A DNA stretch of 64,000 bases, taken from an uncultured Actinomycetota bacterium. GTDB lineage: Bacteria; Actinomycetota; UBA4738; HRBIN12. The number at the start of each line of letters is the position of its first letter. The stretch's first letter is position 1. Of the stretch, positions 7,278 through 50,429 are shown in pieces. The notes under the pieces were generated by a model that saw only the letters and a list, made by a program, of their open reading frames with translations, had not been told where the DNA came from and did not search any database. The position numbers and the translations under genes were made by a program. Location of the stretch: positions 462,701 to 526,700 of the forward strand of contig CAVVSH010000015.1 of NCBI GenBank assembly GCA_963750945.1, written 5' to 3'.

Positions 7278-7573
7278 TCCTTGGTCTCCCGTCTCTCGAG
7301 CCTCCTCGCGCGCCGGCGGAACCAGTTCACGCTCCACCCGATGACGAACCCGAGCGCGGCCGCGATGCCGATCGCCAGGGAGATCGCCACGTCCCAATCC
7401 CAGAACAAGAAGTCGATGTTCGCGTCGTCGAGGTTCTGGAGGGCGAAGATCACGAGGAGGAGCGCGGCGGTGCCGAGCGCGAAGGACTTGAGCCCGGTGT
7501 TCTCCCGCCGATACTCGAAGGTCGGCTTCCCTTCCGGGATCGCGTCGTTCGGATCTTCCTGTTCGCGTCGCAT
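7274..7573 (-). CDS. LapA-domain (DUF1049) small membrane protein
   Basis: TM helix followed by WFRRRARRLERRE. I take the internal ATG at 7573 as the start; the longer upstream extension is not believed. Confidence 0.5.
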   Translation of the reverse strand: MRREQEDPNDAIPEGKPTFEYRRENTGLKSFALGTAALLLVIFALQNLDDANIDFLFWDWDVAISLAIGIAAALGFVIGWSVNWFRRRARRLERRETKD

Positions 7574-12368: not shown

Positions 12369-13379
12369 TCAGCGACCGCCCAGATACGACCGGCCGACAT
12401 CCCTGAGCTTCTGGTGCGTGGCACCGTACGCGTCGGCGCGCGGGAGATATGCCTTGGCCACCTTCGCCAGGAACGTGTAGTTGGGATCCACGACGTTCGC
12501 CACCGGGGACTCGCTCACCTGGGTCAGCAGTTGATACGCGTCGAGCGCCTCGAGGCCGTACTCCTCGCCCATCCACGCGATCAGATCGGTGTGCGCGATC
12601 CGGAACGCATCCTCGAGCGGCCGGGCCGACCCGGTCGACATGATGTGGCTGTCGCTCTCGATCCGCGGCCAAGGGGTCGATCGGCCCTTCACCAGGTCGA
12701 TCGCGATCACGGTGTCCATCGCCGCCTCGACGGCGACCCCGCACGTTTCTCCCTCGCCCTGCCGGCAGTGCCCGTCACCGATCGAGAACAACGCGCCTTC
12801 GACATTCACACCCAGATAACAGGTGACGCCGGCGCGCATCTCGGGTGTGTCCATGTTGCCTCCGTGTGCATCCGGCACGAGCGACGATCGTGCCTCGAAC
12901 GCGGCCGGAGCGACACCGACGGTGCCGTGCATCGGGTCCAGAGGGAGCGTCGCGACGTGGTCGCCCTCGGTCGCTCGGTACGTGACGGTGCGGCCGGCTC
13001 GGTCGACCTCGTAGATCCACACGCGCTCCGGCAGCGGTTCCTGCAGCGTCGGGGTCTGGTGGGTCGACGTGAGCGCTCCGAAGAGCGGCACCGTGCACGA
13101 GGACGCCCAATCCCTCGACGGCTCGATCGAGACGAAGTGGATCGCGAGCGTGTCCCCGGGCTCCGCGCCGTCCACGAAGAACGGCCCCGTCTGCGGATTG
13201 ACGAACGGAAACTCGATCACGCGTGAGACCCAGTCGTCCGGCCCTCGAACCTTCCCTCCGAACGCGTCCTCGGTCCAAAGCTCGAGGATGTCGCCGGGCC
13301 TCACGGTCCGAACGGGTGGGACGCCACCGAACGTCCACGCGAACTCGGAGGGTTCCGGCCGGTAGGCGAGCACATCCAT
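12369..13379 (-). CDS. acetamidase/formamidase (FmdA/AmdA) family protein
   Basis: 336 aa with conserved Cys/His-rich metal-binding stretches typical of the FmdA_AmdA family. Confidence 0.65.
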   Translation of the reverse strand: MDVLAYRPEPSEFAWTFGGVPPVRTVRPGDILELWTEDAFGGKVRGPDDWVSRVIEFPFVNPQTGPFFVDGAEPGDTLAIHFVSIEPSRDWASSCTVPLFGALTSTHQTPTLQEPLPERVWIYEVDRAGRTVTYRATEGDHVATLPLDPMHGTVGVAPAAFEARSSLVPDAHGGNMDTPEMRAGVTCYLGVNVEGALFSIGDGHCRQGEGETCGVAVEAAMDTVIAIDLVKGRSTPWPRIESDSHIMSTGSARPLEDAFRIAHTDLIAWMGEEYGLEALDAYQLLTQVSESPVANVVDPNYTFLAKVAKAYLPRADAYGATHQKLRDVGRSYLGGR

Positions 13380-14589: not shown

Positions 14590-15264
14590 ATGAACGAACC
14601 CGCCCCCATCGAGATCCACAAGGCCCTAGCGGACGACACCCGCTACCGGCTCTATCGCTATCTGCGCCTGTCCGGGCGGCCAGTCCCCGTTCGCGAGCTC
14701 GCCACGCGGCTGAGCCTCCACGCCAACACGATCCGTCCGCACCTACGGCGGCTGGTGGATGCGGGCCTCGTCGCGTCGGAGACGCGACGAGGACCGTCGG
14801 CGGTCGGGCGCCCGCAAACGGTCTACACGGCGGTGGCGATGGACAACCGCGAGGGCCGCGACCACCGGTTGCTCGCCGACATCCTCGCCACGCTCATCAA
14901 AGGGCCGCGGGCCCGCACGGGCGCCGAGAACCTCGCTCGCGAGTGGGGTGACTACCTCATGACCCGGCACGCCCCTCCTCCAGGGGCGCGACGTCCGGGA
15001 CCCAACCTGGCAGCCCTGCGAGACGCGCTGGCAGAGGCGGGGTTCGATCCGCGGTTCCGCCGCCGTGGGAACCGATCGGTCGAGATCGCGTTGCGGAGCT
15101 GCCCGTTCCGAGACCTGCTCGAGGAGCACCGAGAGCTCGTGTGCGCGGTGCATCGCGGACTCCTCGAGGGGATGTTGGAGGGATCTCGGCCCCGACTCCA
15201 CCTGCGCTCGTTCGAGCCCCTCGCGGACCGGGGTGCCGTCTGCCGGCTCGTGGCCGGAGAGTGA
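14590..15264 (+). CDS. ArsR-family HTH transcriptional regulator with cysteine-containing C-terminal domain (SufR-like)
   Basis: N-terminal HTH with LADDTRYRLYRYL. Three C-terminal cysteines (SCPF, VCAVH, AVCRL). Confidence 0.55.
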   Translation: MNEPAPIEIHKALADDTRYRLYRYLRLSGRPVPVRELATRLSLHANTIRPHLRRLVDAGLVASETRRGPSAVGRPQTVYTAVAMDNREGRDHRLLADILATLIKGPRARTGAENLAREWGDYLMTRHAPPPGARRPGPNLAALRDALAEAGFDPRFRRRGNRSVEIALRSCPFRDLLEEHRELVCAVHRGLLEGMLEGSRPRLHLRSFEPLADRGAVCRLVAGE

Positions 15265-15366
15265 ACCTCGAGCGAGCTCGGGGAGTCGGCTGAAGTTCAC
15301 CTCGTGAACGACCGATGGGACAGGAACGGGCGTGCTCGGCATGCCCCGTGCAATGGATCTTTGGCG

Positions 15367-16497
15367 ATGGATCCGCTCGAGACGAGGTGTGGCGCAGTGG
15401 AGAACACGGATTCCGCCGTGGCGGAGTTCGACGGTTGGCTGAAGGACCTGATGGAGGGTCAAGGCTCTGACCTGCACGTCAAGGTCGGTTCACCGCCGAT
15501 GATCCGACTGCCGGACGGACTGGTACGGATGGATCGGGATCCGATCACCCCGGTCGAGACGGCCGCGATCGCCGATTCGATCATCCCCGCCGACCGCAGG
15601 GAGCTGTTCGAGAAGAACGGTGAGATCGACTTCGCGTACTCACTCAGGGACGTCGGTCGGTTCCGCGCGAACGTGTTCAAGCAGCGGGGTTCGATCTCGA
15701 TGGTGCTCCGCCGCCTCCGATTCGGTGGCCCGACGTTCGAGGAGATGGGTCTGCCCGACGCGGTCCGGCAGCTCTCCGAGGAGCATCGCGGCTTGATCCT
15801 CGTGACGGGCCCGACCGGCTCGGGGAAGACGACGACGCTCGCGTCGATGATCGGCCACATCAACGAGACCAAGCCGGTGCACATCGTGACGATCGAGGAC
15901 CCGATCGAGGTGCTTCACCGCGACGCGATGGCCTCGATCAACCAACGCGAGATCGGCAACGACACGCAGGATTTCCACGCGGCGCTGCGAGCGGCGCTCC
16001 GGCAGGACCCGGACGTGATCCTGATCGGCGAGATGCGCGACACCGAGACCGTGCGAGCTGCGATCCAGGCCGCCGAGACCGGGCACCTCGTCCTCTCGAC
16101 GCTCCACACCGTGGACGCCACCGAGACCGTCAACCGGGTGATCGACTTCTTCCCTCCCTACCAGCAGAAGCAGGTGCGACTGGCGCTCGCGGGGACGCTC
16201 CGCGGGATCATCTGCCAGCGGCTGGTGACGACGGTGGACGGAGGCCGGACCCCTGCCCTCGAGATCCTCGTGAACAACGGTCGGATCGCCGAGCGGATCG
16301 TCGACCCGGACCGGACGAGCGAGATCAAGGACGTGCTCGCCGACGGCCACTTCTACGGGATGATGACGTTCGACCAGTCCCTTCTGATCCTCCTCCAGGA
16401 AGGGAAGATCACGACGGAGGCCGCCTTCCAGGCAGTGTCCAGCCGGCACGATTTCGAGCTCGCGATGCAGCAAGCAGGGCTCGCCGTCCCCGCCTGA
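15367..16497 (+). CDS. pilT: PilT-family type IV pilus retraction ATPase (orphan)
   Basis: Walker A GLILVTGPTGSGKTTTL, GSDLHVKVGSPPMIRLPDG N-domain, and Asp/His boxes. Start could be the ATG at 15367 or a GTG slightly downstream. Confidence 0.8.
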   Translation: MDPLETRCGAVENTDSAVAEFDGWLKDLMEGQGSDLHVKVGSPPMIRLPDGLVRMDRDPITPVETAAIADSIIPADRRELFEKNGEIDFAYSLRDVGRFRANVFKQRGSISMVLRRLRFGGPTFEEMGLPDAVRQLSEEHRGLILVTGPTGSGKTTTLASMIGHINETKPVHIVTIEDPIEVLHRDAMASINQREIGNDTQDFHAALRAALRQDPDVILIGEMRDTETVRAAIQAAETGHLVLSTLHTVDATETVNRVIDFFPPYQQKQVRLALAGTLRGIICQRLVTTVDGGRTPALEILVNNGRIAERIVDPDRTSEIKDVLADGHFYGMMTFDQSLLILLQEGKITTEAAFQAVSSRHDFELAMQQAGLAVPA

Positions 16498-16501
16498 CCT
16501 G

Positions 16502-17080
16502 TCAGGCGGCCGTGCGCGTTCTTCCGAGACGGCCGATCCCGAGTGCGACGCCGGCTCCCAGAGCGAGTCCGCCGAGGCCGATCGCAACGGCTGTGCCGGC
16601 AGGGATCCCCCCGGCGTCGGCGACCGGTTGAGGTGTGACATTGCTCGCCGGAGGCTCGAAGGGCTGGACCGAGATCGACTCGCCGCTCCCCGTGATGCCC
16701 TTCCCGTTGCCGACGACGATCGCACCGGTCATGCCGGGGTGGTAGTTGCACGCGAACGGGTAGACGCCGGGCTCGTCGAACGTCACCGTGAAGGCGTCCC
16801 CCTCGATCATGTCTTCGAAGTGACCCCACTGGTTGCCGCCGACGTTGTGGGTGACCCCCAGGTCCGTGTTGGCGAACGTCACGGGAGCGCCGGGGTCGAC
16901 GGTGGTGACAGTCGCGGTGAAGCACGCATCGACCATGCGCACTGTGGCGTCCTTCTCACCGGTGGCGTCGTTCTCGGTCACGCCCGAGTGGCAGCCACCG
17001 CCCGCCATCGCCGCGCCGGGCACGCCCAGGACGACCGTCGCCGCGCCGACCACCACGCAGAGGAGCATCACTCGCCTCAT
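16502..17080 (-). CDS. blue copper (cupredoxin/plastocyanin-like) protein with signal peptide and C-terminal TM anchor
   Basis: Type-1 copper site FACNYHPGMTG with an upstream His. Confidence 0.75.
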   Translation of the reverse strand: MRRVMLLCVVVGAATVVLGVPGAAMAGGGCHSGVTENDATGEKDATVRMVDACFTATVTTVDPGAPVTFANTDLGVTHNVGGNQWGHFEDMIEGDAFTVTFDEPGVYPFACNYHPGMTGAIVVGNGKGITGSGESISVQPFEPPASNVTPQPVADAGGIPAGTAVAIGLGGLALGAGVALGIGRLGRTRTAA

Positions 17081-17128
17081 GCCGATCCCTCCTTCGTTCG
17101 TCCGATGCCCCTGCTACACCGGCCACGG

Positions 17129-17905
17129 TCAGGAGGTTCCCGCGGACTCGGCGATCCGGATGGCCTCGGCCTTGGGCAGAGGCGTCTCCAGGCGCATGGT
17201 GAAGAGACCGTCGCGCCACAGGAGCACGTTGCCCTCCACGCGCACGGACACGACGCCCTCGCTGGTGAGCAGCTCGAGGAGGTGCGTGCCCCTCGTCCAG
17301 TAGTAGTCGACGCCGTCGACCGTCTCGAACTGCAAGACACCCGTGTCCTCGTAAACGGACTTCGACGCCAGGTTGGCCTCGCCCTCGAAGATCATGAGGA
17401 CGGCTCCGTATCGAGTGTCCGAGATCTCCGCAAGGTCCGGTCGCGCACGCCATGCCAGCGTGACTCGCGCGACCCTTCCCACCTCCGTGAAGACTCGGTC
17501 TGCCCAGACCCGATCCGGCCGACCGAGACGCTCGAGGAACGGGATATCTCGTCCCAGCAGGGCGGCTGCCTCTTCGAGGGTCACGGGTTGGCCGGTGGGG
17601 GCGATCGAGGGGGTCGGAAGAAGCCCGGGCCGGTTCGGGGTCACGTCGAGGACGACGGCGCCCAGGTCGATGATGATCTTCGCCGCCACCGCCGCGCCGG
17701 CCAGCAGGAGCACGGTCGCCGCGGCGATGAGCATGATCCGCTTGGGGCGGGACAGCGGGAGCCGGACCAAGCCGGGATGCTCTTGCGTAGCGACACGCGC
17801 CATGACCGCAGGTGCGAGCTCCGGCGTGGCCGGCCACTCGACATCCAACGTGGACAGCGCCGTGCCGAGGTCGTCGTCACCCACCGAACGGAGGCGTTCG
17901 CTCAT
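17129..17905 (-). CDS. membrane-spanning anti-sigma factor (single TM, extracytoplasmic C-domain)
   Basis: ATGA-coupled to the upstream ECF sigma stop. TM segment IMLIAAATVLLLAGAAVAA. Position and topology fit an anti-sigma factor. Confidence 0.5.
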   Translation of the reverse strand: MSERLRSVGDDDLGTALSTLDVEWPATPELAPAVMARVATQEHPGLVRLPLSRPKRIMLIAAATVLLLAGAAVAAKIIIDLGAVVLDVTPNRPGLLPTPSIAPTGQPVTLEEAAALLGRDIPFLERLGRPDRVWADRVFTEVGRVARVTLAWRARPDLAEISDTRYGAVLMIFEGEANLASKSVYEDTGVLQFETVDGVDYYWTRGTHLLELLTSEGVVSVRVEGNVLLWRDGLFTMRLETPLPKAEAIRIAESAGTS

Positions 17906-18495
17906 GCCGGCTCCTCCAGCATCGCGCGCAGGCGCACCATCGCCCTCGAGAGTCGCGACTTGGCCGTCCCCAGCCGCACGTCGAGGACGTCCGCCGTCTC
18001 GCTCTCCGAGAGCCCGAGCAGGAACCGGTACCCGATGACCTCGCGGTCCGAAGGCGACAGACGGTTGAGTGCGGCGACCAGTGCCTCTCGATCTTCCTGT
18101 GCGAGGGCCGCGGTCTCCGGGGACGGGGCCGCGTCCCCGTCGGAGACCGCGGCCGCGCGCAGGGCCAGGCTCTGGCGACGGCGGGTGGATCTCGCTCGGT
18201 TGCGAGCCTCGTTGGCCACGATCTTGAGCAACCACGGCCGGAACGGTGAGTCCGGCCGGAACCGTGGGAGCGCGTAGTAGGCCTTCACGAATGCCTCCTG
18301 GGCCGAGTCCTCCGCCTCGGCGCGGTCGCGCGTGACGAGCCAGGCGACACGGAAGGCGATCTGCCCGTACCGCTTCACCAGTTCCTCGTACGCAGCGTCG
18401 TCGCCCTCACGGGCTCGCCGTGCGAGTTCGGCTTCCTCCAGTGGTCGGCCCTCCACGGGAGCTTTCCCCTTCACGTCTGTTACACCGCTCCACAC
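17902..18495 (-). CDS. ECF (sigma-70 family) RNA polymerase sigma factor
   Basis: Region 2 (YEELVKRYGQIAFRVAWLVTRDRAEAEDSAQEAFVKAY) and region 4 HTH (LSESETADVLDVRLGTAKSRLSRA). Confidence 0.85.
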   Translation of the reverse strand: MWSGVTDVKGKAPVEGRPLEEAELARRAREGDDAAYEELVKRYGQIAFRVAWLVTRDRAEAEDSAQEAFVKAYYALPRFRPDSPFRPWLLKIVANEARNRARSTRRRQSLALRAAAVSDGDAAPSPETAALAQEDREALVAALNRLSPSDREVIGYRFLLGLSESETADVLDVRLGTAKSRLSRAMVRLRAMLEEPA

Positions 18496-18580
18496 AGCGC
18501 GGTTCCCACGTCACCCATCGACCAAGTCCACACGCCCAAGGAGAACAGCACCGAGCGGGACCTCGGAACCGCCCGGGGTG

Positions 18581-19507
18581 CTATCCGGCCGGCGGCTGTC
18601 CGTCGCTCTTCGCCTGGTCGGCGAGCGCGACGACCCCTGCCGCGAGGCCCGCGAGCTCCATCGGCACGACGATCTTGGATGACGCCGAGCCGCCGATCTG
18701 CTTGAGCGCGTCCAGATACTGCAGCGTCATCGTCTTCTGGTCGGCGGTTGACGCTTGCCGGTTGATGGTTTCGAGGGCCAGCGCGAAACCCTCGGCCCGC
18801 AAGATCGCCGCTTGCCGCTCGCCCTCGGCCGTGAGGATCGCCGACGCCTTGCTTCCCTCGGCATTCAAGATCGCCGAGGCCTTGTTGCCCTCCGCGACGG
18901 TGATCGCGGCGGACTTCGTGCCGTCGGCCTCGAGGACGATGGCCCGGCGGGAACGCTCGGCCGACATCTGGCGCGTCATCGCCTCCTGGACGGACGGTGG
19001 CGGGATGATCTCGCGGATCTCGACGTTCGTGACCTTCACGCCCCACCGCTCGGTCACCTCGTCGAGCTTCGCGCGCAAGATCTGGTTGATCTCGTCGCGT
19101 TTGGCGAGCACGTCATCGAGCGGGATGTCACCGATGACCGCCCGCAGGGTGGTGGAAGCCAGCGCCTGCGCGGCGCCCGCGAAGTTCCCGACCTGGACCA
19201 CGCTCATCGCGGGGTCGACGACCTTGTAGAACGTGATGAAGTCGACTGCGATCGGCGCGTTGTCCTTCGTGATCGAGTCCTGCCTCGGGATCTCCAGGAA
19301 GAACTCACGAAGATCGACCTTCACGCCCTTGTCCACGATCGGGATCAACAGGATGAGTCCCGGTCCCTTCACGCCCAGCAGGCGGCCCAGGCGGAACACC
19401 ACGAGACGCTGGTACTCGGGCACGATGCGGATGGCGTTGGCCAAGAACAGGATGACCAGCGCGATCGCGACGGCGACGCCGATGAACGCCGGGTCGGTGA
19501 AGTCCAT
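18581..19507 (-). CDS. SPFH/band-7 (stomatin-like) protein
   Basis: N-terminal TM followed by the SPFH core (IVPEYQRLVVFRLGR..VDFITFYKVVDP). Confidence 0.85.
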   Translation of the reverse strand: MDFTDPAFIGVAVAIALVILFLANAIRIVPEYQRLVVFRLGRLLGVKGPGLILLIPIVDKGVKVDLREFFLEIPRQDSITKDNAPIAVDFITFYKVVDPAMSVVQVGNFAGAAQALASTTLRAVIGDIPLDDVLAKRDEINQILRAKLDEVTERWGVKVTNVEIREIIPPPSVQEAMTRQMSAERSRRAIVLEADGTKSAAITVAEGNKASAILNAEGSKASAILTAEGERQAAILRAEGFALALETINRQASTADQKTMTLQYLDALKQIGGSASSKIVVPMELAGLAAGVVALADQAKSDGQPPAG

Positions 19508-20850
19508 CAGGTGTTCCCTCCTCGGGCCGGCAGTGCGCCGCCGGAGGGCGCGTGCTCAGGTTGCAGCGGCTCGACGGTGAGCACGAGCCCGTCGAGCCTG
19601 GTCACGCGGATCTTCGAGCCTTCGGGGATCGATCCAGCCGTCGATCTCGCCTTCCACTCCTCGGCGGCCACGCGCACGACGCCTTCGGGATCGAGACCCC
19701 CGCTCAGCACCACACCCTCCTTGCCGACGACTGCCTCCGGACCCTGGGCGGGTGGAAGATGTCGCATCGCGAGGGCCTTGGCGACGACGAATCCGAAGAA
19801 CAACGCCATGAAGACCGCGACGGGGATGATCGCGAGAAGCGAGACGCGGACGCCGCCGGAGGGATCGAAGAGGAAGAGCCCACCGAGGACGAGGGACGCG
19901 ATCCCGGCAGCCGACCAGATCCCGAGACCGGGCACCTTGAGCTCGACCACGAAGAACACCACGGAGGCCGCGAGCAGCGCGATCCCGATGAGTCGCACCG
20001 GAAGGAGCCCGAACGACGCGATCGCGGTCAGCAGCAGGATGGTGCCGATCGTGCCGCTGAAGACGTGACCCGGCACGATCAGCTCGAGGACGATCAGCGC
20101 GAGACCGAGCCAGAAGAAGATGAACGCGAGGTTGGGGTCGAACAGGTCGTGGAGGAAGCTCACGCCGGGAGTCATGTCGACGTCCTGGATCTCGGCTCCC
20201 GCCGTGTGCAGTGTCGCGGTGGTGCCGTCGACGGTCTCGACCACCGTGCCGTCGACCTCCTCGAGCAACGCTCGCTCCGAGTCGGCGACCAGATCGATGA
20301 TGTCGCCTTCCAGTGCCTCCTGGGCAGTGATGCTCTTCGATTCGGTCACGAAGAGGGATGCGAGCTCGGCGTTCCGGCCTCGCTGCTCGGCGAGGCCGCG
20401 GATGTAGGCGGCGGCGTCCTCCTCGATCTTGTCGGAAAGCGTGACCCCCCCGATCCCGACAGGGGTCGACGCGCCGACGTTGGTGGCGGGCGCCATCGCG
20501 GCCACGTGGCACGAGAGGAGGATGAACGCGCCCGCCGACGCGGCTCTCGCCCCCTCGGGCGACACGTAGCAGAGCACGGGGACTTCTGAGTCCTGGATCG
20601 CCTTGACGATCTCCCGCATCGAAGAATCCAGACCGCCGGGGGTATCGATCGTGAGGAGCACGGCCTCCGCGTCCTCGGCGCCCTCGATGCCGGTACGCAG
20701 GTAGTCGGCGACGAAGGGGTCGACCACGCCTTCGAGGGACAGGTGGGTCACCGACGTCGAGGCGGACTGGGCGCTGGCCATCGAGGCGAGCCCGGCGACC
20801 ACGAGCATGGCGCCGACCAGCGTTCGGGCGGACCTCGACCTCTCGATCAC
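19507..20850 (-). CDS. NfeD-family membrane-bound protease partner of stomatin
   Basis: ClpP-like N-domain, a central polytopic membrane region and a C-terminal OB-like domain. Its stop overlaps the stomatin start by 1 nt. Confidence 0.8.
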   Translation of the reverse strand: MIERSRSARTLVGAMLVVAGLASMASAQSASTSVTHLSLEGVVDPFVADYLRTGIEGAEDAEAVLLTIDTPGGLDSSMREIVKAIQDSEVPVLCYVSPEGARAASAGAFILLSCHVAAMAPATNVGASTPVGIGGVTLSDKIEEDAAAYIRGLAEQRGRNAELASLFVTESKSITAQEALEGDIIDLVADSERALLEEVDGTVVETVDGTTATLHTAGAEIQDVDMTPGVSFLHDLFDPNLAFIFFWLGLALIVLELIVPGHVFSGTIGTILLLTAIASFGLLPVRLIGIALLAASVVFFVVELKVPGLGIWSAAGIASLVLGGLFLFDPSGGVRVSLLAIIPVAVFMALFFGFVVAKALAMRHLPPAQGPEAVVGKEGVVLSGGLDPEGVVRVAAEEWKARSTAGSIPEGSKIRVTRLDGLVLTVEPLQPEHAPSGGALPARGGNT

Positions 20851-20906
20851 CTGGTCAGCGCTCCTGCGCGGATGTCGTTACCTGTTATGCGCCAGCCTAC
20901 TCCTCT

Positions 20907-20954
20907 CGGTTCTCTGGCCGGTTCTCTGGTCGGTTCTCTGGTCGGTTCTCGCGT
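20907..20954. repeat. 4 tandem copies of a 12-bp unit (cggttctctggt) in the divergent promoter region between nfeD and the ECF sigma gene
   Basis: Direct reading gives cggttctctggc cggttctctggt cggttctctggt cggttctcgcgt. Confidence 0.85.
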
Positions 20955-21056
20955 CCAGCTCGGACGTTTCCGAACCGGCGCAAGCGTGCGAATATCGGGG
21001 GGCAAGGCTCCGCAAAGCTTCGACCCCCGAAGCCGCCGTATACCGAGAGGAACCGA

Positions 21057-21629
21057 GTGGACGCTCGGCACGAAGGCCCGCTCCTCCCACGGGAGGAGCA
21101 ACAACTGATGGAGGGTCTCCTCACCGGTGACGACGACGCGATCCGCGCTCTCTACGCGAGGTTCGGCCGCCCCGTGTACTCCTTGGGCATGCGGTTGCTC
21201 GGCTCGCGAGAGGCGGCCGAAGAGCTCGCACAGGACGTCTTCCTCATGGCGTGGCGCAAGGCCGCCCGATTCGATCCGGCGCGGGGACGCCTGTCGACCT
21301 GGCTCATGACGATCGCGCACAACCTCGCCGTCGACCGACTCCGCCGGGAAACGGGCGCTCGCCGCCCGACCCTGGTCTTGATGGATGAGGTGCCGGATGC
21401 CCCCGGGGCGAGCGAGGAGGACGCGGTCGAGGAGCGTGACGCGGCGACCCGGGCGCTCGCATCTCTGACCGATGCCGAGCGAACCTTGCTCACTCGGGCG
21501 TACTTCCGCGGCCTGACGGCGCGGGAGATCTCCGAGTCCGACGGGATCCCCCTCGGGACCGTGAAGACCCGGCTTCGCACGGCGATGATCAAGGTCAGGC
21601 GCGCGAACGAAGGCAAGGAGATCCCGTGA
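21057..21629 (+). CDS. ECF RNA polymerase sigma factor
   Basis: Region 2 (AIRALYARFGRPVYSLGMRLLGSREAAEELAQDVFLMAW) and region 4 (LTAREISESDGIPLGTVKTRLRTA). GTG start with a GAGAGG RBS. Start could also be the ATG at 21108. Confidence 0.85.
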   Translation: MDARHEGPLLPREEQQLMEGLLTGDDDAIRALYARFGRPVYSLGMRLLGSREAAEELAQDVFLMAWRKAARFDPARGRLSTWLMTIAHNLAVDRLRRETGARRPTLVLMDEVPDAPGASEEDAVEERDAATRALASLTDAERTLLTRAYFRGLTAREISESDGIPLGTVKTRLRTAMIKVRRANEGKEIP

Positions 21630-22408
21630 ACTGCCTCACGGTGCGCGATCGTCTCGCCGAGCACGCGCTCGGCGTGCTGCGGGACGGGGAGGCAACATCG
21701 GTCGATCGCCATCTCGAGTGGTGCGCGGCGTGCCGGAAGGAAGCGGGCGAGCTCCAGCGGGCGGCGGCGACGCTCGCCTTCTCCGTGGCGCCGGCGGAGC
21801 CCCCGGCGGCGCTGGAGGATCGGGTGGTCGGAGCGGTGCGAGACGCGGCGGGACGGCGGCGGGCCGCGGCGCCGCGGCGGAGCCGCGTCGCCGCGGCAGG
21901 CGTGCTCGCCGCGATGCTGGCCCTCTCCGGTCTCGGTTGGGGCGCGGTGATGGCGGGGCGTGCCGAGCGAGCCGAGGCGCGGGCGGCGGCAGCCCTCATC
22001 GAGCAACGAGATGCCGTCGCGAAGATCCAGGATGTGTTCCAGCTCCCGGAGGTGGATCCCGAGGCGATCGCGGAGATCTCGACGCTGCTCTCACCTCGAC
22101 TCCGTGAAGGCCGTGGCGACGCGCTGGTGCTGCTCTCCCCGTCGGGCGACGACCTCGCGTTCGTCTTGGTGAGCGGTCTCAGCGAGGTGCGAGCCAACCA
22201 GCTCCCGCTCGAGGTCCGGCTCGTCGGGAGCGGTGCGCGGAGAGAGCTCGTCGTCGGCCAGATCAGGACGCTCAACTCCGGCGGTGAGGGCGGCGTGTAT
22301 CGCTCCTTCACCGAGGGTTTGAGGAGCTTCGGTGCCGTCGTGATCAGGGACGCTCGTGGCACGGTGCTGTTGAACGGCACCCTGAGCGTCTACGAGCCGA
22401 CGTCCTGA
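21626..22408 (+). CDS. membrane-anchored zinc-binding (ZAS) anti-sigma factor
   Basis: DRHLEWCAACRKE fits the HxxxCxxC ZAS motif. One TM segment. GTGA overlap with the sigma gene. Confidence 0.7.
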   Translation: MNCLTVRDRLAEHALGVLRDGEATSVDRHLEWCAACRKEAGELQRAAATLAFSVAPAEPPAALEDRVVGAVRDAAGRRRAAAPRRSRVAAAGVLAAMLALSGLGWGAVMAGRAERAEARAAAALIEQRDAVAKIQDVFQLPEVDPEAIAEISTLLSPRLREGRGDALVLLSPSGDDLAFVLVSGLSEVRANQLPLEVRLVGSGARRELVVGQIRTLNSGGEGGVYRSFTEGLRSFGAVVIRDARGTVLLNGTLSVYEPTS

Positions 22409-22421
22409 CTATCCTCGCCGG

Positions 22422-23420
22422 ATGCGCTTCGGGCTGAGCCTTCCGCACTACGGCTTCTCGCTCCCGACCGGCCAGATCACGTTCGACGACGCGGCCGAGT
22501 GGGCTCGCCGGGCGGAGGCCCTGGGGTTCGACTCGGTCTGGGTCTCCGATCACTTCTTCTACTCCTTGGCCCGGTACGGGGACGATCCGTCTTCGATCGC
22601 GTCGCTCGAGCCGCTCACCACACTTGCCGGCATCGCCGCGGTCACCGAACGCGTTCGGCTCGGAACCCTCGTCCTGTGCGCGGCGTTCCGTCATCCCGCG
22701 CTGCTCGCGAAGGCGACGGCGTCGATCGATCTCCTCTCGAGCGGGCGCGTCGATCTCGGACTCGGCGCCGGATGGATGGCGGAGGAGTTCGAGGCGTTCG
22801 GGTATCGATACGGGTCGGTGGGGGAGCGCTTCGCGATCCTCGAAGAGACACTCGACGTGTTGAAGCAGCTGTTCAGCGGGGAGCCGGTCACGTACGACGG
22901 ACCGAACGTCACGCTCCGCGAGGCCGTGCTCCGTCCGGCGCCCGATCGCCCCCCGCCACTGTGGGTGGGCGGGAAGGGCGGCCCGCGGCTCCTCCGAGTG
23001 GCCGCGCGCCTGGCGGACGGGTGGAACGTGGTGTGGCGGATGTCGCCGGACGCGTACGCGGGGAAGGTCACCGACGTGCGGTCGGCGTGTGACGCAGCGG
23101 GCCGCGACCCGGCCACGTTCGGCCTCTCCGTCGGCCTGTACTCGCTGATCGGCGAGGACGAGGCGTCGGCGCGGGCCGCGTTCGAACGCGGCCGCGCCGC
23201 CGCCCCCGGGAACGCGATGGCCGAGGACGACTACGAGACGTGGCGGGCCGACACGCTCTCGGGTACACCCGAGCAGATCCTCGAACGCGTCGGCGCGTTC
23301 GAGTCGATGGGCGTCGGCGAGATCATCGTGGCGCCGTGGGTGTTGCCGTTCGCGATCCACGAACCAGACCAGGTCGAGTTGTTCGCCGAGCGCGTGATCG
23401 CCGCATCGCGAGCGAGCTGA
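22422..23420 (+). CDS. LLM-class (luciferase-like) flavin/F420-dependent oxidoreductase
   Basis: TIM-barrel LLM signature (GFDSVWVSDHF ... DLLSSGRVDLGLGAGW). Confidence 0.7.
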   Translation: MRFGLSLPHYGFSLPTGQITFDDAAEWARRAEALGFDSVWVSDHFFYSLARYGDDPSSIASLEPLTTLAGIAAVTERVRLGTLVLCAAFRHPALLAKATASIDLLSSGRVDLGLGAGWMAEEFEAFGYRYGSVGERFAILEETLDVLKQLFSGEPVTYDGPNVTLREAVLRPAPDRPPPLWVGGKGGPRLLRVAARLADGWNVVWRMSPDAYAGKVTDVRSACDAAGRDPATFGLSVGLYSLIGEDEASARAAFERGRAAAPGNAMAEDDYETWRADTLSGTPEQILERVGAFESMGVGEIIVAPWVLPFAIHEPDQVELFAERVIAASRAS

Positions 23421-23644
23421 TGGAGCCTCGTGCGGCCGTCTTGGCCGTCTTGAAGGAGGAAGCAGTTCCATTGCATTGGACGAAGATCCAGGACCTGGCA
23501 CTCCGCCGCGGCTATCTCGATCCGTTCGAGCATCCGGACGTGCGGAGGCAGGTGCAGACCACGCTGAGGGATCTGGCCCGTGAGGGTCTCGTCGGGAAGC
23601 GGGCGAAAGGCGTGTACTACGCGGCCGAGCGCGACGACGCTTGA
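23420..23644 (+). CDS. small winged-helix domain protein (Mrr_N/HARE-HTH-like), 74 aa
   Basis: MEPRAAVLAVLKEEAVPLHWTKIQDLALRRGYL..LVGKRAKGVYYAAE. 1-nt overlap with the upstream stop. Confidence 0.4.
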   Translation: MEPRAAVLAVLKEEAVPLHWTKIQDLALRRGYLDPFEHPDVRRQVQTTLRDLAREGLVGKRAKGVYYAAERDDA

Positions 23645-23928
23645 GCCTTCCTCCGACCGGCAGCCTTCTTGCGGCCCGCCGTCTTCTTCCGACCACCGGT
23701 CGTCTTCCGGGGACGGCCGCGTCGCTTGGGCGCCGCGGATGCGGCTTGTCCGGATCCGGCCATCTTGCGTGGACGTCCCGGGCGCGGTCGCCGGGCGCCG
23801 GCGACCAGCTCCGTCACGTGGGTCGCGCAGAGATCCTTCGCGAAGTTCCCACGCGCGACCTTGATCGTCACCGTTTCGGTGGCAGGTTTGCCACAGACAT
23901 CGCACACGACGATCGTTCTCTCGGCCAT
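23617..23928 (-). CDS. zinc-ribbon protein with AT-hook-like basic tail (possible nucleoid-associated protein), 103 aa
   Basis: CDVCGKPA..DLCATH followed by repeated GRPRK/RGRPRK motifs. Internal ATG with a GGAGAGG RBS. The longer upstream extension is rejected. Confidence 0.45.
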   Translation of the reverse strand: MAERTIVVCDVCGKPATETVTIKVARGNFAKDLCATHVTELVAGARRPRPGRPRKMAGSGQAASAAPKRRGRPRKTTGGRKKTAGRKKAAGRRKAQASSRSAA

Positions 23929-23999
23929 GATCGGGTCCTCTCCGTCGGGGTTGCGGCGAGCATAGCGGAAGAACCCGTCGGGTTCCGATGCTCGTCCTG

Positions 24000-24995
24000 T
24001 CAACGCCGGTAGGTGGTGCCGGATATCTCCTCGAGTTTCTCGAAACGGTGCTGGGCTTCGACCCAACGCATCGTGCCGGAACGCGATCGCATCACGAGCG
24101 AATACGTCGTCGCGCCGTCCGGCCAGTAACGCACGCCCTGGAGCAGCGAGCCCTCGGTGATGCCGGTCGCGGCGAAGAACACGTCCTTGCCGGACACCAG
24201 GTCGTCCGTCGTCAACACTCGTTCCGGATCGAGCCCCGCACTCTTCAGCTGTGCTCGTTCCTCCTCGGTTCGCGGCGCGAGACGTCCCTGGATCGCGCCC
24301 CCCATGCACTTCAGCGCCGCGGCGGCGATGACCCCTTCGGGGGTGCCGCCGATCCCCAGCAACAGGTCCACGCCGGCGCGAGGTGCCGCCGCGGAGATCG
24401 CTCCTTCGACGTCGCCGTCGGTGATCAGGAATACCCGCGCACCGACATCGCGGACCGCATCGATGATCGCCTGATGCCGGGGTCGATCGAGGATCATCAC
24501 CGAGACCTCCTCGGGCTTCTTCCCCTTCGCCTTCGCCACCTGCCGGACGTTCTCCTCCGGCGGCGCGGTCACGTCGATCACGTCGGCGGCCTCCGCTCCG
24601 GTCGCGATCTTCTCCATGTAGACGGCGACGTCGGGGAAGAGCATCGTGCCGCGCTCCGCGAGCGCGATCACCGAGACGGCGTTGGGCTGTCCCGTCGCTG
24701 TCAGGCGCGTCCCGTCGATCGGGTCGACCGCGACGTCGACCGCCGGACCGGATCCGTTCCCGACGGATTCGCCGTTGTAGAGCATCGGCGCCTCGTCTTT
24801 CTCGCCCTCGCCGATGACGACCACGCCGTCCATCGAGACCGAGTCGATCATGTGACGCATCGCGTCGACCGCCGCCTGATCGGCGGCGATCTTGTCGCCG
24901 CGACCGATCCAGCGCCCGGCGGCGAGCGCGGCGGCTTCGGTCACGCGCGCGAGCTCCATCGCGAGGTTGCGGTCGGGTCGGATCCGGTTCGTCAT
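24000..24995 (-). CDS. glpX: class II fructose-1,6-bisphosphatase
   Basis: [52 protein letters not shown] aligns closely with E. coli GlpX. ATGA overlap with gpsA. Confidence 0.9.
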
Positions 24996-49919: not shown

Positions 49920-50429
49920 ATGGGGCAAGGAGAGCCTGCCCGAGCTCGCATGTGGGAGGCCGGAGGCCGATGGTTCGCGCACGTCCTGGACGTGCCCGCC
50001 TACATCGAGGTGACCGGAACGAGCCGAGGGAGCTGCCTCGTCGAGCTACGCAAGGCGACCGGAGACGACGTCGACCTCATCATCGAAGTCATCCCGGCCG
50101 TGGTGGGGGTCGCAGAGGCCGCCGAGATCATGGGTTGGGACAAGCGCAGGGTGATCACGTACATCGATCGCGGCTCGTTCCCGGAGCCGATCGGCACGCT
50201 CGCGTCGGGACGGATCTGGATCCGAGAAGACGTCGAGGACTACGCCCATCACTGGCGAGCGGCCCATCCACTGGGGGCGAGGCAGCTGACGAAGACGCCC
50301 GTCCGGAAGGAACCGAAGCCGCCGAAGAAGCCGAAGCCAAGGCCGAAGCCAAGGAAGAGGCCAAGCAAGAAGCCAAGCAAGAAGCCAAGCAAGAAGCCAA
50401 GCAAGAAGAAGGTGTCCGCGCCCACGTGA
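49920..50429 (+). CDS. HicB-like/HTH protein with Lys-Pro-rich repetitive basic tail
   Basis: GRWFAHVLDVPAYIEVTGTSRG (HicB-like fold), AEAAEIMGWDKRRVITYIDRG (HTH-like), then a KPPKKPKPRPKPRKRPSKKPSKKPSKKPSKKK tail. Start could be the ATG at 49950. Confidence 0.5.
   Translation: MGQGEPARARMWEAGGRWFAHVLDVPAYIEVTGTSRGSCLVELRKATGDDVDLIIEVIPAVVGVAEAAEIMGWDKRRVITYIDRGSFPEPIGTLASGRIWIREDVEDYAHHWRAAHPLGARQLTKTPVRKEPKPPKKPKPRPKPRKRPSKKPSKKPSKKPSKKKVSAPT
50360..50407. repeat. perfect 4x12-bp tandem repeat (gccaagcaagaa) encoding (KKPS)4, with degenerate copies upstream
   Basis: Read directly from the sequence. It creates long open frames on several frames: EAKQ repeats in the +1 frame and ENRP-type artefacts elsewhere. 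Confidence 0.8.

Follow-up and report, generated by a model that had tools for sequence, protein, structure and literature searches.

What is the role of a short tandem repeat between two divergent genes, one for an alternative sigma factor and one for a membrane-associated protease, and do the sigma factor modules on either side of the protease operon belong with it? These questions are raised by a 64,000-bp stretch of DNA (the window) from an uncultured member of the Actinomycetota (contig CAVVSH010000015.1, positions 462,701 to 526,700). Its positions 17129 to 22408 encode an NfeD protein and a stomatin-like SPFH protein, flanked on each side by genes for an extracytoplasmic function (ECF) sigma factor and an actual or putative membrane anti-sigma factor. 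The 206-bp intergenic region (20851-21056) between nfeD and the divergent gene for the second sigma factor, sig2, carries an array of four 12-bp units. An earlier note, made from the sequence alone, proposed that the array consists of iterated binding sites or is a slippage-prone tract and that both sigma modules form, together with the NfeD-stomatin pair, a linked envelope-stress module. Its gene identities, translational coupling, zinc-associated anti-sigma (ZAS) motif, divergent promoter region, and repeat were all recovered here, for all six genes and the 206-bp region.

The array is best seen as an ordinary promoter-associated variable repeat rather than a required or fixed regulatory device. 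In the explanation favored here, whose chances appear about even, it is a promoter tandem repeat whose unit contains a -35-like GAGAACC box, a product of slippage that would tune the promoter at most. The gene cluster itself, in which an NfeD-stomatin operon is paired with an ECF sigma/ZAS anti-sigma switch, is well conserved and of an ordinary kind.

The 12-bp array and its variation among relatives

The array occupies positions 20953 to 20903 on the nfeD (minus) strand and comprises four 12-nucleotide units, each with the GAGAACCG core: GAGAACCGACCA (20950..20939), GAGAACCGACCA (20938..20927), GAGAACCGGCCA (20926..20915), and GAGAACCGAGAG (20914..20903). Tandem Repeats Finder (TRF) places it at 20906-20950, with a period of 12, 3.8 copies, 93% matches, and a score of 83; in the register of the earlier note, copy 1 has one mismatch and copy 4 has two. 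Only 2 of 100 dinucleotide-preserving shuffles of the window yield any array with a score of at least 83, and about 20 related species carry arrays of the same unit at the orthologous position. Thus, the array is a genuine feature, as the earlier note had assumed.

The comparison set consists of 86 related loci, every one of them from uncultured soil Actinomycetota. A search of species-representative genomes with the NfeD protein as the query returned 79 loci in metagenome-assembled genomes (51 to 91% NfeD identity), and a search of metagenomes with a promoter 24-mer added 7 further relatives; the matches in the latter scan were relatives only and included no strain of the window's own species. 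An exact-protein look-up identified L001, a 62.8-kb contig from another assembly that is 99.6% identical to the window. Domains were assigned with Pfam and NCBIfam, tandem repeats were detected with TRF, and synteny was assessed by tblastn searches of nine window proteins against all loci. Motif counts given below cover 1.32 Mb, and the 12-mer search covers 1.42 Mb.

Across about 33 clade A genomes and metagenome contigs, the number of units ranges from 1 to 4, which makes the array polymorphic in the sense of a variable-number tandem repeat (VNTR); the clades with NfeD identity of 62% or less have no array. No other part of the intergenic region varies as much as the array segment, which lies between a conserved block and the hexamer TAGGCT and has a length of 31 to 81 nucleotides. 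This segment has 31 nucleotides and a single GAACC box in L009, L012, and L014; about 55 nucleotides and one unit in L003 and L004; an intermediate length and two to three units in L002, L006, L008, L017, and L080 to L087; 76 nucleotides and approximately four units in L061; and 79 nucleotides and four exact-period units in the window. In the one-unit loci L003 and L004, a TTGACA-like ATGACC or CTGACC is located 16 nucleotides from TAGGCT. In all 26 clade A loci and all 7 metagenome loci, the distance between TAGGCT and the unit proximal to nfeD is constant. The distal units are progressively degraded in the relatives (e.g., GAGCACCG, GAGCGCCG, and GATGACCG) and near-identical in the window, which suggests that the expansion in the window is recent. 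In the comparison of copy numbers that the earlier note had proposed, all four units are present in the 99.6%-identical strain, but the four-copy state is not conserved, with 1 to 4 units in the relatives and none in the distant clades.

Could the array be a neutral minisatellite, i.e., a chance expansion in a slippage-prone, poorly constrained spacer, whose likeness to a -35 box is incidental? It does sit in the least conserved intergenic segment (31 to 81 nucleotides), which hosts unrelated short repeats as well, such as GGACCGGCCAA in 2.5 copies in L007. Period-12 duplications are common in the window, and a comparable array score turns up in 2% of the shuffled windows. However, the position of the proximal GAACC box is invariant in all clade A loci, the two-block motif to which this box belongs (see below) recurs in four clades with differing spacers, and, in 1.42 Mb, the identical 12-mer GAACCGAGAGGA is shared with an array at one other locus only. 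With these regularities, a purely neutral origin appears doubtful.

Variation of this kind might also mark a contingency (phase-variation) locus, in which expression of nfeD-SPFH or sig2 would be switched as units are frequently gained and lost within a population. Copy number does differ between species, and promoter tandem repeats of Mycobacterium tuberculosis vary at rates of 1e-2 to 1e-3 per chromosome (PMC12817950). However, the sole strain-level comparison, a weak test as a single pair, shows the same four units in L001 and no difference at all between positions 20428 and 21697. In addition, four 12-bp units make a short tract, and the in-register box stays at the same distance from the -10 box when units are gained or lost. 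A switch of this type is very improbable here.

Promoter-like elements upstream of nfeD and sig2

The hexamer TAGGCT (20900..20895, minus strand) belongs to the TANNNT type, and most clades retain it as TAGGCT or TACGCT. At least 20 loci from at least four clades have a TANNNT box 6 to 8 nucleotides before the nfeD ATG, a signature of leaderless mRNA, and the window's TAGGCT is accordingly read as the likely -10 box of nfeD. Loci with an apparently leaderless nfeD include L026, L028 to L031, L049, L057, L067, and L076. In the window's clade, TAGGCT is followed by a 44-nucleotide stretch with the ribosome-binding site (RBS) CAGGAG and then by the GTG start codon of nfeD. The transcription start of nfeD is predicted near 20888, with a leader of about 38 to 44 nucleotides. 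Judging from the TAGGCT box and the two-block motif, the array would span approximately -15 to -65 of the nfeD promoter and approximately -50 to -100 of a distal sig2 promoter box.

The two-block element (20912..20888, minus strand) consists of GAACC (20912..20908), located in the proximal repeat unit, a 15-nucleotide spacer that includes TAGGCT, and the downstream block GCGCA (20892..20888); only the proximal copy of the unit is in register with this downstream half. The pattern GAACC-N15-[GA]CG[AC]A has 63 matches on both strands. Of these, 38 are directed toward nfeD, in 38 of the 78 intergenic regions and in four clades (A, C, D1, and D2; 0.05 expected), 6 are directed toward sig2 in clades C and G, at about +125 to +133 from the start codon, and 9 are elsewhere. 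Another 8 sig2-directed matches, at +7, are part of the sig2 RBS and start sequence and were discounted. In clades C, D1, and D2, the spacer varies freely while both blocks are retained, so the element looks like the footprint of an ECF-type promoter. The upstream block in clade D1 is GAGAACC, identical to the repeat core.

On the other side of the intergenic region, a different two-block motif, (G/C)CAA(A/G)C-N18-CGTATAC (21013..21044, plus strand), is located directly upstream of the sig2 RBS. It is conserved in all clades; 56 of its 61 matches fall at the sig2 site and none of the 61 before nfeD. This motif is a candidate proximal promoter of sig2. Thus, sigma2 has two candidate autoregulatory sites, the universal CAAGC-N18-CGTATAC and the GAACC-N15-CGAAC found in 6 loci. 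Farther upstream lies a conserved block, GGCGCAAGCGTGCGAATATCG (20977..20997, plus strand), which contains the hexamer GAATAT (20991-20996) with the A2/T6 pattern. The block is kept in clade A and is found in clades D1 and D2 as GGCGAACC-CAT-GCGACCATC; clade D2 has TGGCCA 17 nucleotides upstream of the conserved GAATAT-type hexamer. It is plausible that this block represents a housekeeping-type distal promoter, tentatively oriented toward sig2.

The GGAAC-N16-18-CGT(T/C) promoters that the earlier note had suggested have no match in either intergenic region. The GGAAC at 21050 was rejected as a sig2 promoter, as it belongs to the RBS (GAGAGGA) and start region of a conserved coding extension. 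A sigma-70 consensus scan of positions 16400 to 22600 found no sites, which is uninformative at 68% GC in an actinobacterium. An Rfam scan of positions 15000 to 24000 gave a sub-threshold SAH match inside a pilT-like open reading frame (ORF) as its sole match and none in 18457-18580 or 20851-21056. The intergenic region also contains a perfect 10-nucleotide inverted repeat, TCCTCTCGGT and ACCGAGAGGA (20901-20910 and 21042-21051), with one arm at the proximal repeat unit, read on the nfeD strand, and the other around the sig2 RBS.

As for the factor that reads the two-block element, co-regulation of nfeD by sigma1 or sigma2 is plausible. The sigma1-type motif (GGAACC-N15-GGTGTA) was searched for upstream of nfeD and not found. 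Since the two-block element is retained in the clades without the sigma1 cassette and is mirrored toward sig2 in clades C and G, sigma2 would be its most economical reader.

These elements suggest how the array might have arisen. The 12-bp unit would be a duplicated GAGAACC box, the upstream half of a two-block ECF-type element in front of nfeD-SPFH that is superimposed on the housekeeping-type -10 box TAGGCT. Replication slippage would have copied the unit, with the three distal units as recent extras, and only the promoter-proximal unit would be in register with GCGCA, 15 nucleotides away, and with TAGGCT. Because every unit carries the same sequence, addition of units would not alter the sequence at the -35 position and would only shift upstream sequence away, such as the TTGACA-like hexamer of L003 and L004. 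The extra copies might at most tune promoter strength, either by displacing the upstream sequence or by providing additional docking sites for the sigma factor. Both alternatives of the earlier note, iterated sites and a slippage-prone tract, were therefore reasonable, as the core resembles a -35-type box and copy number differs among relatives.

Several points weigh against this explanation. The universal motif proximal to sig2, which is absent before nfeD, may be a competitor for sigma2's own specificity, and sequence inspection of clade A found no sig2-directed two-block motif of the GAACC type. The -10-like half is GCGCA in clade A versus GCGAA in the other clades, and clade A is too shallow to distinguish constraint from shared ancestry. 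All promoter assignments, including the sigma factor that reads each motif and any effect on expression, are inferred from sequence. Finally, L009 has a three-unit array of the same sequence downstream of an apparent -10 box, a position at odds with a -35 role. This array, CCGAAGAACCGA (20105-20152 in L009, plus strand), precedes an ORF, starting at 20162, for a small membrane protein with a LapA_dom domain (PF06305). It lies about 10 kb from the nfeD promoter of L009, which has one box. It is located between a conserved CATCAT box and the ATG and ends in GAACCGAGAGGA, the 12-mer of the proximal unit in the window, which is found nowhere else in 1.42 Mb beyond these two arrays. The array is absent in 17 orthologous upstream regions, including that of the window (gene 7573..7319, minus strand). 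This second array speaks for a unit that is either mobile or reusable as a binding site. The sequence ACCGAGAGGA of the inverted repeat also terminates the L009 array upstream of the LapA-domain gene.

It is mainly for the second array of L009 that another explanation deserves attention: the GAACC boxes might be operators for a regulator encoded elsewhere, such as a response regulator or a repressor, that would control both nfeD and sig2, with copy number setting occupancy or cooperativity. The L009 array, between an apparent -10 box and the start codon, would suit a repressor better than a -35 element. The GAACC boxes are strand biased toward the nfeD strand, with 1 to 4 copies in clade A and 3 to 4 in clades C and D versus about 0.2 expected, and in several clades they are irregularly spaced or located downstream of TAGGCT. 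As the array is found between divergent promoters, one bound factor could influence both. However, the number of copies varies from 1 to 4 among close relatives despite conserved flanks, the distal copies decay, and the neighborhood has no conserved transcription factor gene besides the two sigma factors. The geometry is promoter-like in clades C and D, where the second block, GCGAAC, is always 15 nucleotides away. Regulators that bind direct repeats typically show a phasing of 10.5 to 11 bp, and operators of the OmpR/PhoB type consist of direct repeats with a period of about 10 to 11 bp in a conserved number; the array, with its period of 12 bp and 1 to 4 units, departs from both. On balance, the boxes are unlikely to be operators, although this explanation is a serious one.

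Gene order and the two sigma factor modules

The order luciferase-like monooxygenase <- anti-sigma2 <- sigma2 / nfeD -> SPFH is kept at every locus with readable flanks. The sigma2 gene is found upstream of nfeD, in divergent orientation, in 77 of 77 readable loci, and the nfeD and SPFH genes are both present in all 79 loci that extend far enough. In contrast, the trio of sigma1, a 258-residue protein, and a cupredoxin is present in 47 loci and absent in 19; in these 19 loci, a convergent pilT-like gene is found 29 to 147 bp after the SPFH gene. Because the sigma2 module is always linked to nfeD-SPFH and the sigma1 trio is not, the two modules are not equivalent flanks of a single unit, and nothing but adjacency in part of the lineage connects the sigma1 cassette to nfeD-SPFH. 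Co-conservation of five genes, which the earlier note had proposed to check, thus extends to sigma2/anti-sigma2 with nfeD-SPFH (77 of 77 loci) but not to the sigma1 pair. In the distant relatives L064 (1322-2175) and L070 (8884-9777), the sig2-nfeD intergenic region is enlarged to about 800 to 890 bp and contains, on the sig2 strand upstream of sig2, a gene for a secreted Peptidase_M15_4 (D-Ala-D-Ala carboxypeptidase-like) protein.

Both sigma factors match Sigma70_r2, Sigma70_r4/r4_2, and Sigma70_ECF and have the size and domain composition of ECF (group IV) sigma factors. In both modules, the sigma gene is followed by an overlapping gene, as expected for a cognate anti-sigma factor, in 47 loci for sig1 and in 77 loci for sig2. 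The sigma2 gene (21057..21629, plus strand) encodes 190 residues and has a GTG start codon preceded by the RBS GAGAGGA (21045-21051). Identity of sigma2 within the lineage is 73 to 98%, and a homologue search returned only orthologues, all with at least 78% identity. Its best NCBIfam match is the SigK subfamily, with a score under the cutoff, and its matches in the PDB include Rhodobacter sphaeroides RpoE (2e-26) and M. tuberculosis SigK (1e-23). The GTG start at 21057, already given in the earlier note, is correct. The 51-nucleotide extension from this GTG to ATG 21108 is coding, with codon-position entropies of 0.48, 0.39, and 1.16, i.e., a third position that is 2.4 to 3 times more variable; it has a conserved GPLLPREEQQL sequence, and the start codon is GTG in 56 of 77 loci. 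The ATG at 21108 chosen by the gene caller is rejected as too short, because the 51 nucleotides upstream of it are coding.

The anti-sigma2 gene (21626..22408, plus strand) overlaps sig2 by GTGA. Its membrane-anchored product matches the zf-HC2 domain of Pfam above the cutoff (1.6e-5) and the anti-sigma family NF052375 of NCBIfam under the cutoff. The ZAS ligands are Cys3 and those in the H29LEWC33AAC36 motif (H-x3-C-x2-C). The protein is a zinc-type anti-sigma factor by this motif, from which binding of zinc and of sigma2 is predicted. It has one transmembrane segment (approximately residues 91 to 109) and an outer domain of about 150 residues that matches no family.

The operon on the other side of the array begins with a long-form NfeD of the NfeD1b/STOPP type (19507..20850, minus strand), in which Pfam recognizes the NfeD1b_N, NfeD_membrane, and NfeD domains. 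It combines a ClpP-like protease domain, a membrane domain, and a C-terminal OB domain; PDB searches match the protease domain of archaeal 1510-N (4e-32) and the STOPP C-terminal domain (1e-7). In the alignment with PH1510, Ser105 (in AASAG) and Lys141 match its catalytic dyad (chain positions 83 and 124), which we take to be Ser97 and Lys138. The nfeD gene overlaps the SPFH gene in a TGATG stop/start junction. The SPFH protein (18581..19507, minus strand) is stomatin/QmcA-like (Pfam Band_7, 1e-37), with Escherichia coli QmcA (3e-57) as its closest match in the PDB and stomatin at 7e-42. Its gene contains a 33-nucleotide coding tandem repeat (18821-18892; 2.2 copies, TRF score 95), which encodes AEGxKASAIL-type repeats in the C-terminal region.

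The sigma1 gene (17902..18456, minus strand; 184 residues) most likely starts at GTG 18456 and not at GTG 18495, as in the earlier note: the resulting N terminus, VEGRPLEE, and the RBS are conserved in 47 loci, with GAAGGGAAG preceding it, and 18495 falls between the -35 and -10 boxes of a conserved promoter motif. This motif, GGAACC-N15-GGTGTA (18506..18481, minus strand), with a variable spacer, precedes sig1 in all 47 cassettes and is a candidate autoregulated ECF promoter of canonical type, in the area where the earlier note had suggested a search (18496-18580). A second motif of the same type, GGAACCTCCTGACCGTGGCCGGTGTA (17140..17115, minus strand), overlaps the stop codon of the anti-sigma1 gene, about 35 nucleotides before the ATG of the cupredoxin gene, and is conserved in at least 39 of the 47 cassettes. 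Of the 104 matches to the sigma1-type motif, 86 are at these two cassette positions. Because the same motif precedes sig1 and the cupredoxin gene, the sigma1 module most likely autoregulates and drives the cupredoxin gene. The earlier view of this pair as part of the linked stomatin module is abandoned, as the pair goes with the downstream cupredoxin gene, with which it shares the promoter motif.

The 258-residue product of the second cassette gene (17129..17905, minus strand), which overlaps sig1 by ATGA at 17902-17905, is a putative anti-sigma1, so called by position and topology only. It is a single-pass membrane protein with a short cytoplasmic N terminus, a transmembrane segment at approximately residues 57 to 75, and a beta-rich outer domain. 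Searches of Pfam, NCBIfam, PDB sequences, and PDB profiles show no matches. Its 312 homologues are all annotated as hypothetical and all come from this lineage; its AlphaFold model has a confidence (pLDDT) of 47, too poor for use. The membrane anti-sigma factor of the earlier note thus keeps its transmembrane segment and ATGA coupling, but its identity comes from context and not from any family match. The third cassette gene (16502..17080, minus strand), which follows that of anti-sigma1 in most cassettes, encodes a cupredoxin (blue copper) protein with matches to Copper-bind and Cupredoxin_1 of Pfam, a signal peptide, and a C-terminal hydrophobic anchor, i.e., with hydrophobic N and C termini. 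Across the lineage, the three genes of the cassette either occur together or are missing together. Relative to the window, L001 has single-G insertions at its positions 12388, 12603, and 13671 (window 18463, 18249, and 17182) within sig1 and the anti-sigma1 gene, which break both frames and are either long-read homopolymer errors or a sign of pseudogenization of the sigma1 cassette in that strain.

Two other repeats are found elsewhere in the window. The 12-nucleotide repeat with the top TRF score in the window (50333-50408; 6.3 copies) encodes the (PSKK)n basic tail of a 169-residue ORF (49920-50429), for which Pfam gives no match. A small basic protein, MAERTIVVCDVCGKPA..., is encoded at positions 23617 to 23930 (minus strand), adjacent to the luciferase-like monooxygenase gene; its RGRP/RKK-rich tail derives from an 18-nucleotide tandem repeat (23644-23694). 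This protein has no Pfam match either and may be nucleoid associated or DNA binding.

Known systems and implications

The anti-sigma2 protein, of the ZAS type, differs from Bacillus subtilis RsiW, and its single transmembrane segment resembles that of M. tuberculosis RslA. Among the solved structures, sigma2 is closest to RpoE and SigK, and anti-sigma2 shows the Cys-His-Cys-Cys spacing of ZAS proteins. Unlike in the RpoE-ChrR, SigL-RslA, and SigK-RskA pairs, sigma2 scores under every subfamily cutoff of NCBIfam and no family match covers the outer domain of anti-sigma2. An SPFH or NfeD context does not come up in the ECF reclassification paper's main text.

The NfeD-SPFH operon resembles PH1510/PH1511 and E. 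coli QmcA-YbbJ in the translational coupling of a ClpP-like Ser-Lys protease of the NfeD family with a stomatin-type SPFH protein. To our knowledge, no partner sigma/anti-sigma pair has been described for these stomatin operons. The B. subtilis flotillin genes floA and floT are members of the regulon of sigma W, an ECF sigma factor (PMC8581546). As in B. subtilis, SPFH genes in NfeD operons (yqeZ-floA and yuaF-floT in that organism [PMC8581546]) appear to be tied to an ECF sigma factor for envelope stress and its membrane anti-sigma factor. Unlike the B. subtilis regulon, which is dispersed and experimentally shown, the arrangement described here is fixed and divergent, and the regulatory link is deduced from synteny and a promoter-like motif.

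For the array, the closest parallels are the promoter tandem repeats of M. tuberculosis, in which copy number varies between lineages and can alter promoter strength (PMC12817950). Like VNTR3690 upstream of lpdA (PMC12817950), the array consists of head-to-tail repeats in an actinobacterial promoter region and varies in copy number. Unlike the M. tuberculosis VNTRs, it has a 12-bp unit in at most 4 copies, and its unit includes a -35-like box that can be recognized as part of a conserved two-block element; variation within a population, as in M. tuberculosis, was not seen in the single comparison possible.

In a bolder reading, the GAGAACC unit would be a portable cis-regulatory module through which an ECF sigma factor, probably sigma2, is brought to membrane protein genes, i.e., nfeD-SPFH throughout the clade and the LapA-domain gene of L009, with copy number as an evolvable gain control. 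Together with the sigma2/ZAS-NfeD-stomatin pairing, it would form a dedicated membrane-microdomain stress circuit across the lineage. This is speculative and, in our view, improbable.

Neither the linkage nor the repeat would surprise specialists, and the practical value of these observations is modest, the organism being uncultured. The analysis corrects two start codons and reassigns the first sigma module, which most likely serves the cupredoxin gene and not the stomatin operon. The repeat illustrates the duplication of what appears to be a promoter box by slippage, followed by decay, as one route of quantitative promoter evolution. If the proposed wiring is true, the genes for an envelope-stress sigma/anti-sigma switch and those for a stomatin scaffold and its NfeD protease are firmly tied to one another in this lineage. 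The locus would then be a physical-linkage counterpart of the sigma W-flotillin connection of Bacillus and a simple system in which to ask which signal SPFH/NfeD pairs answer.

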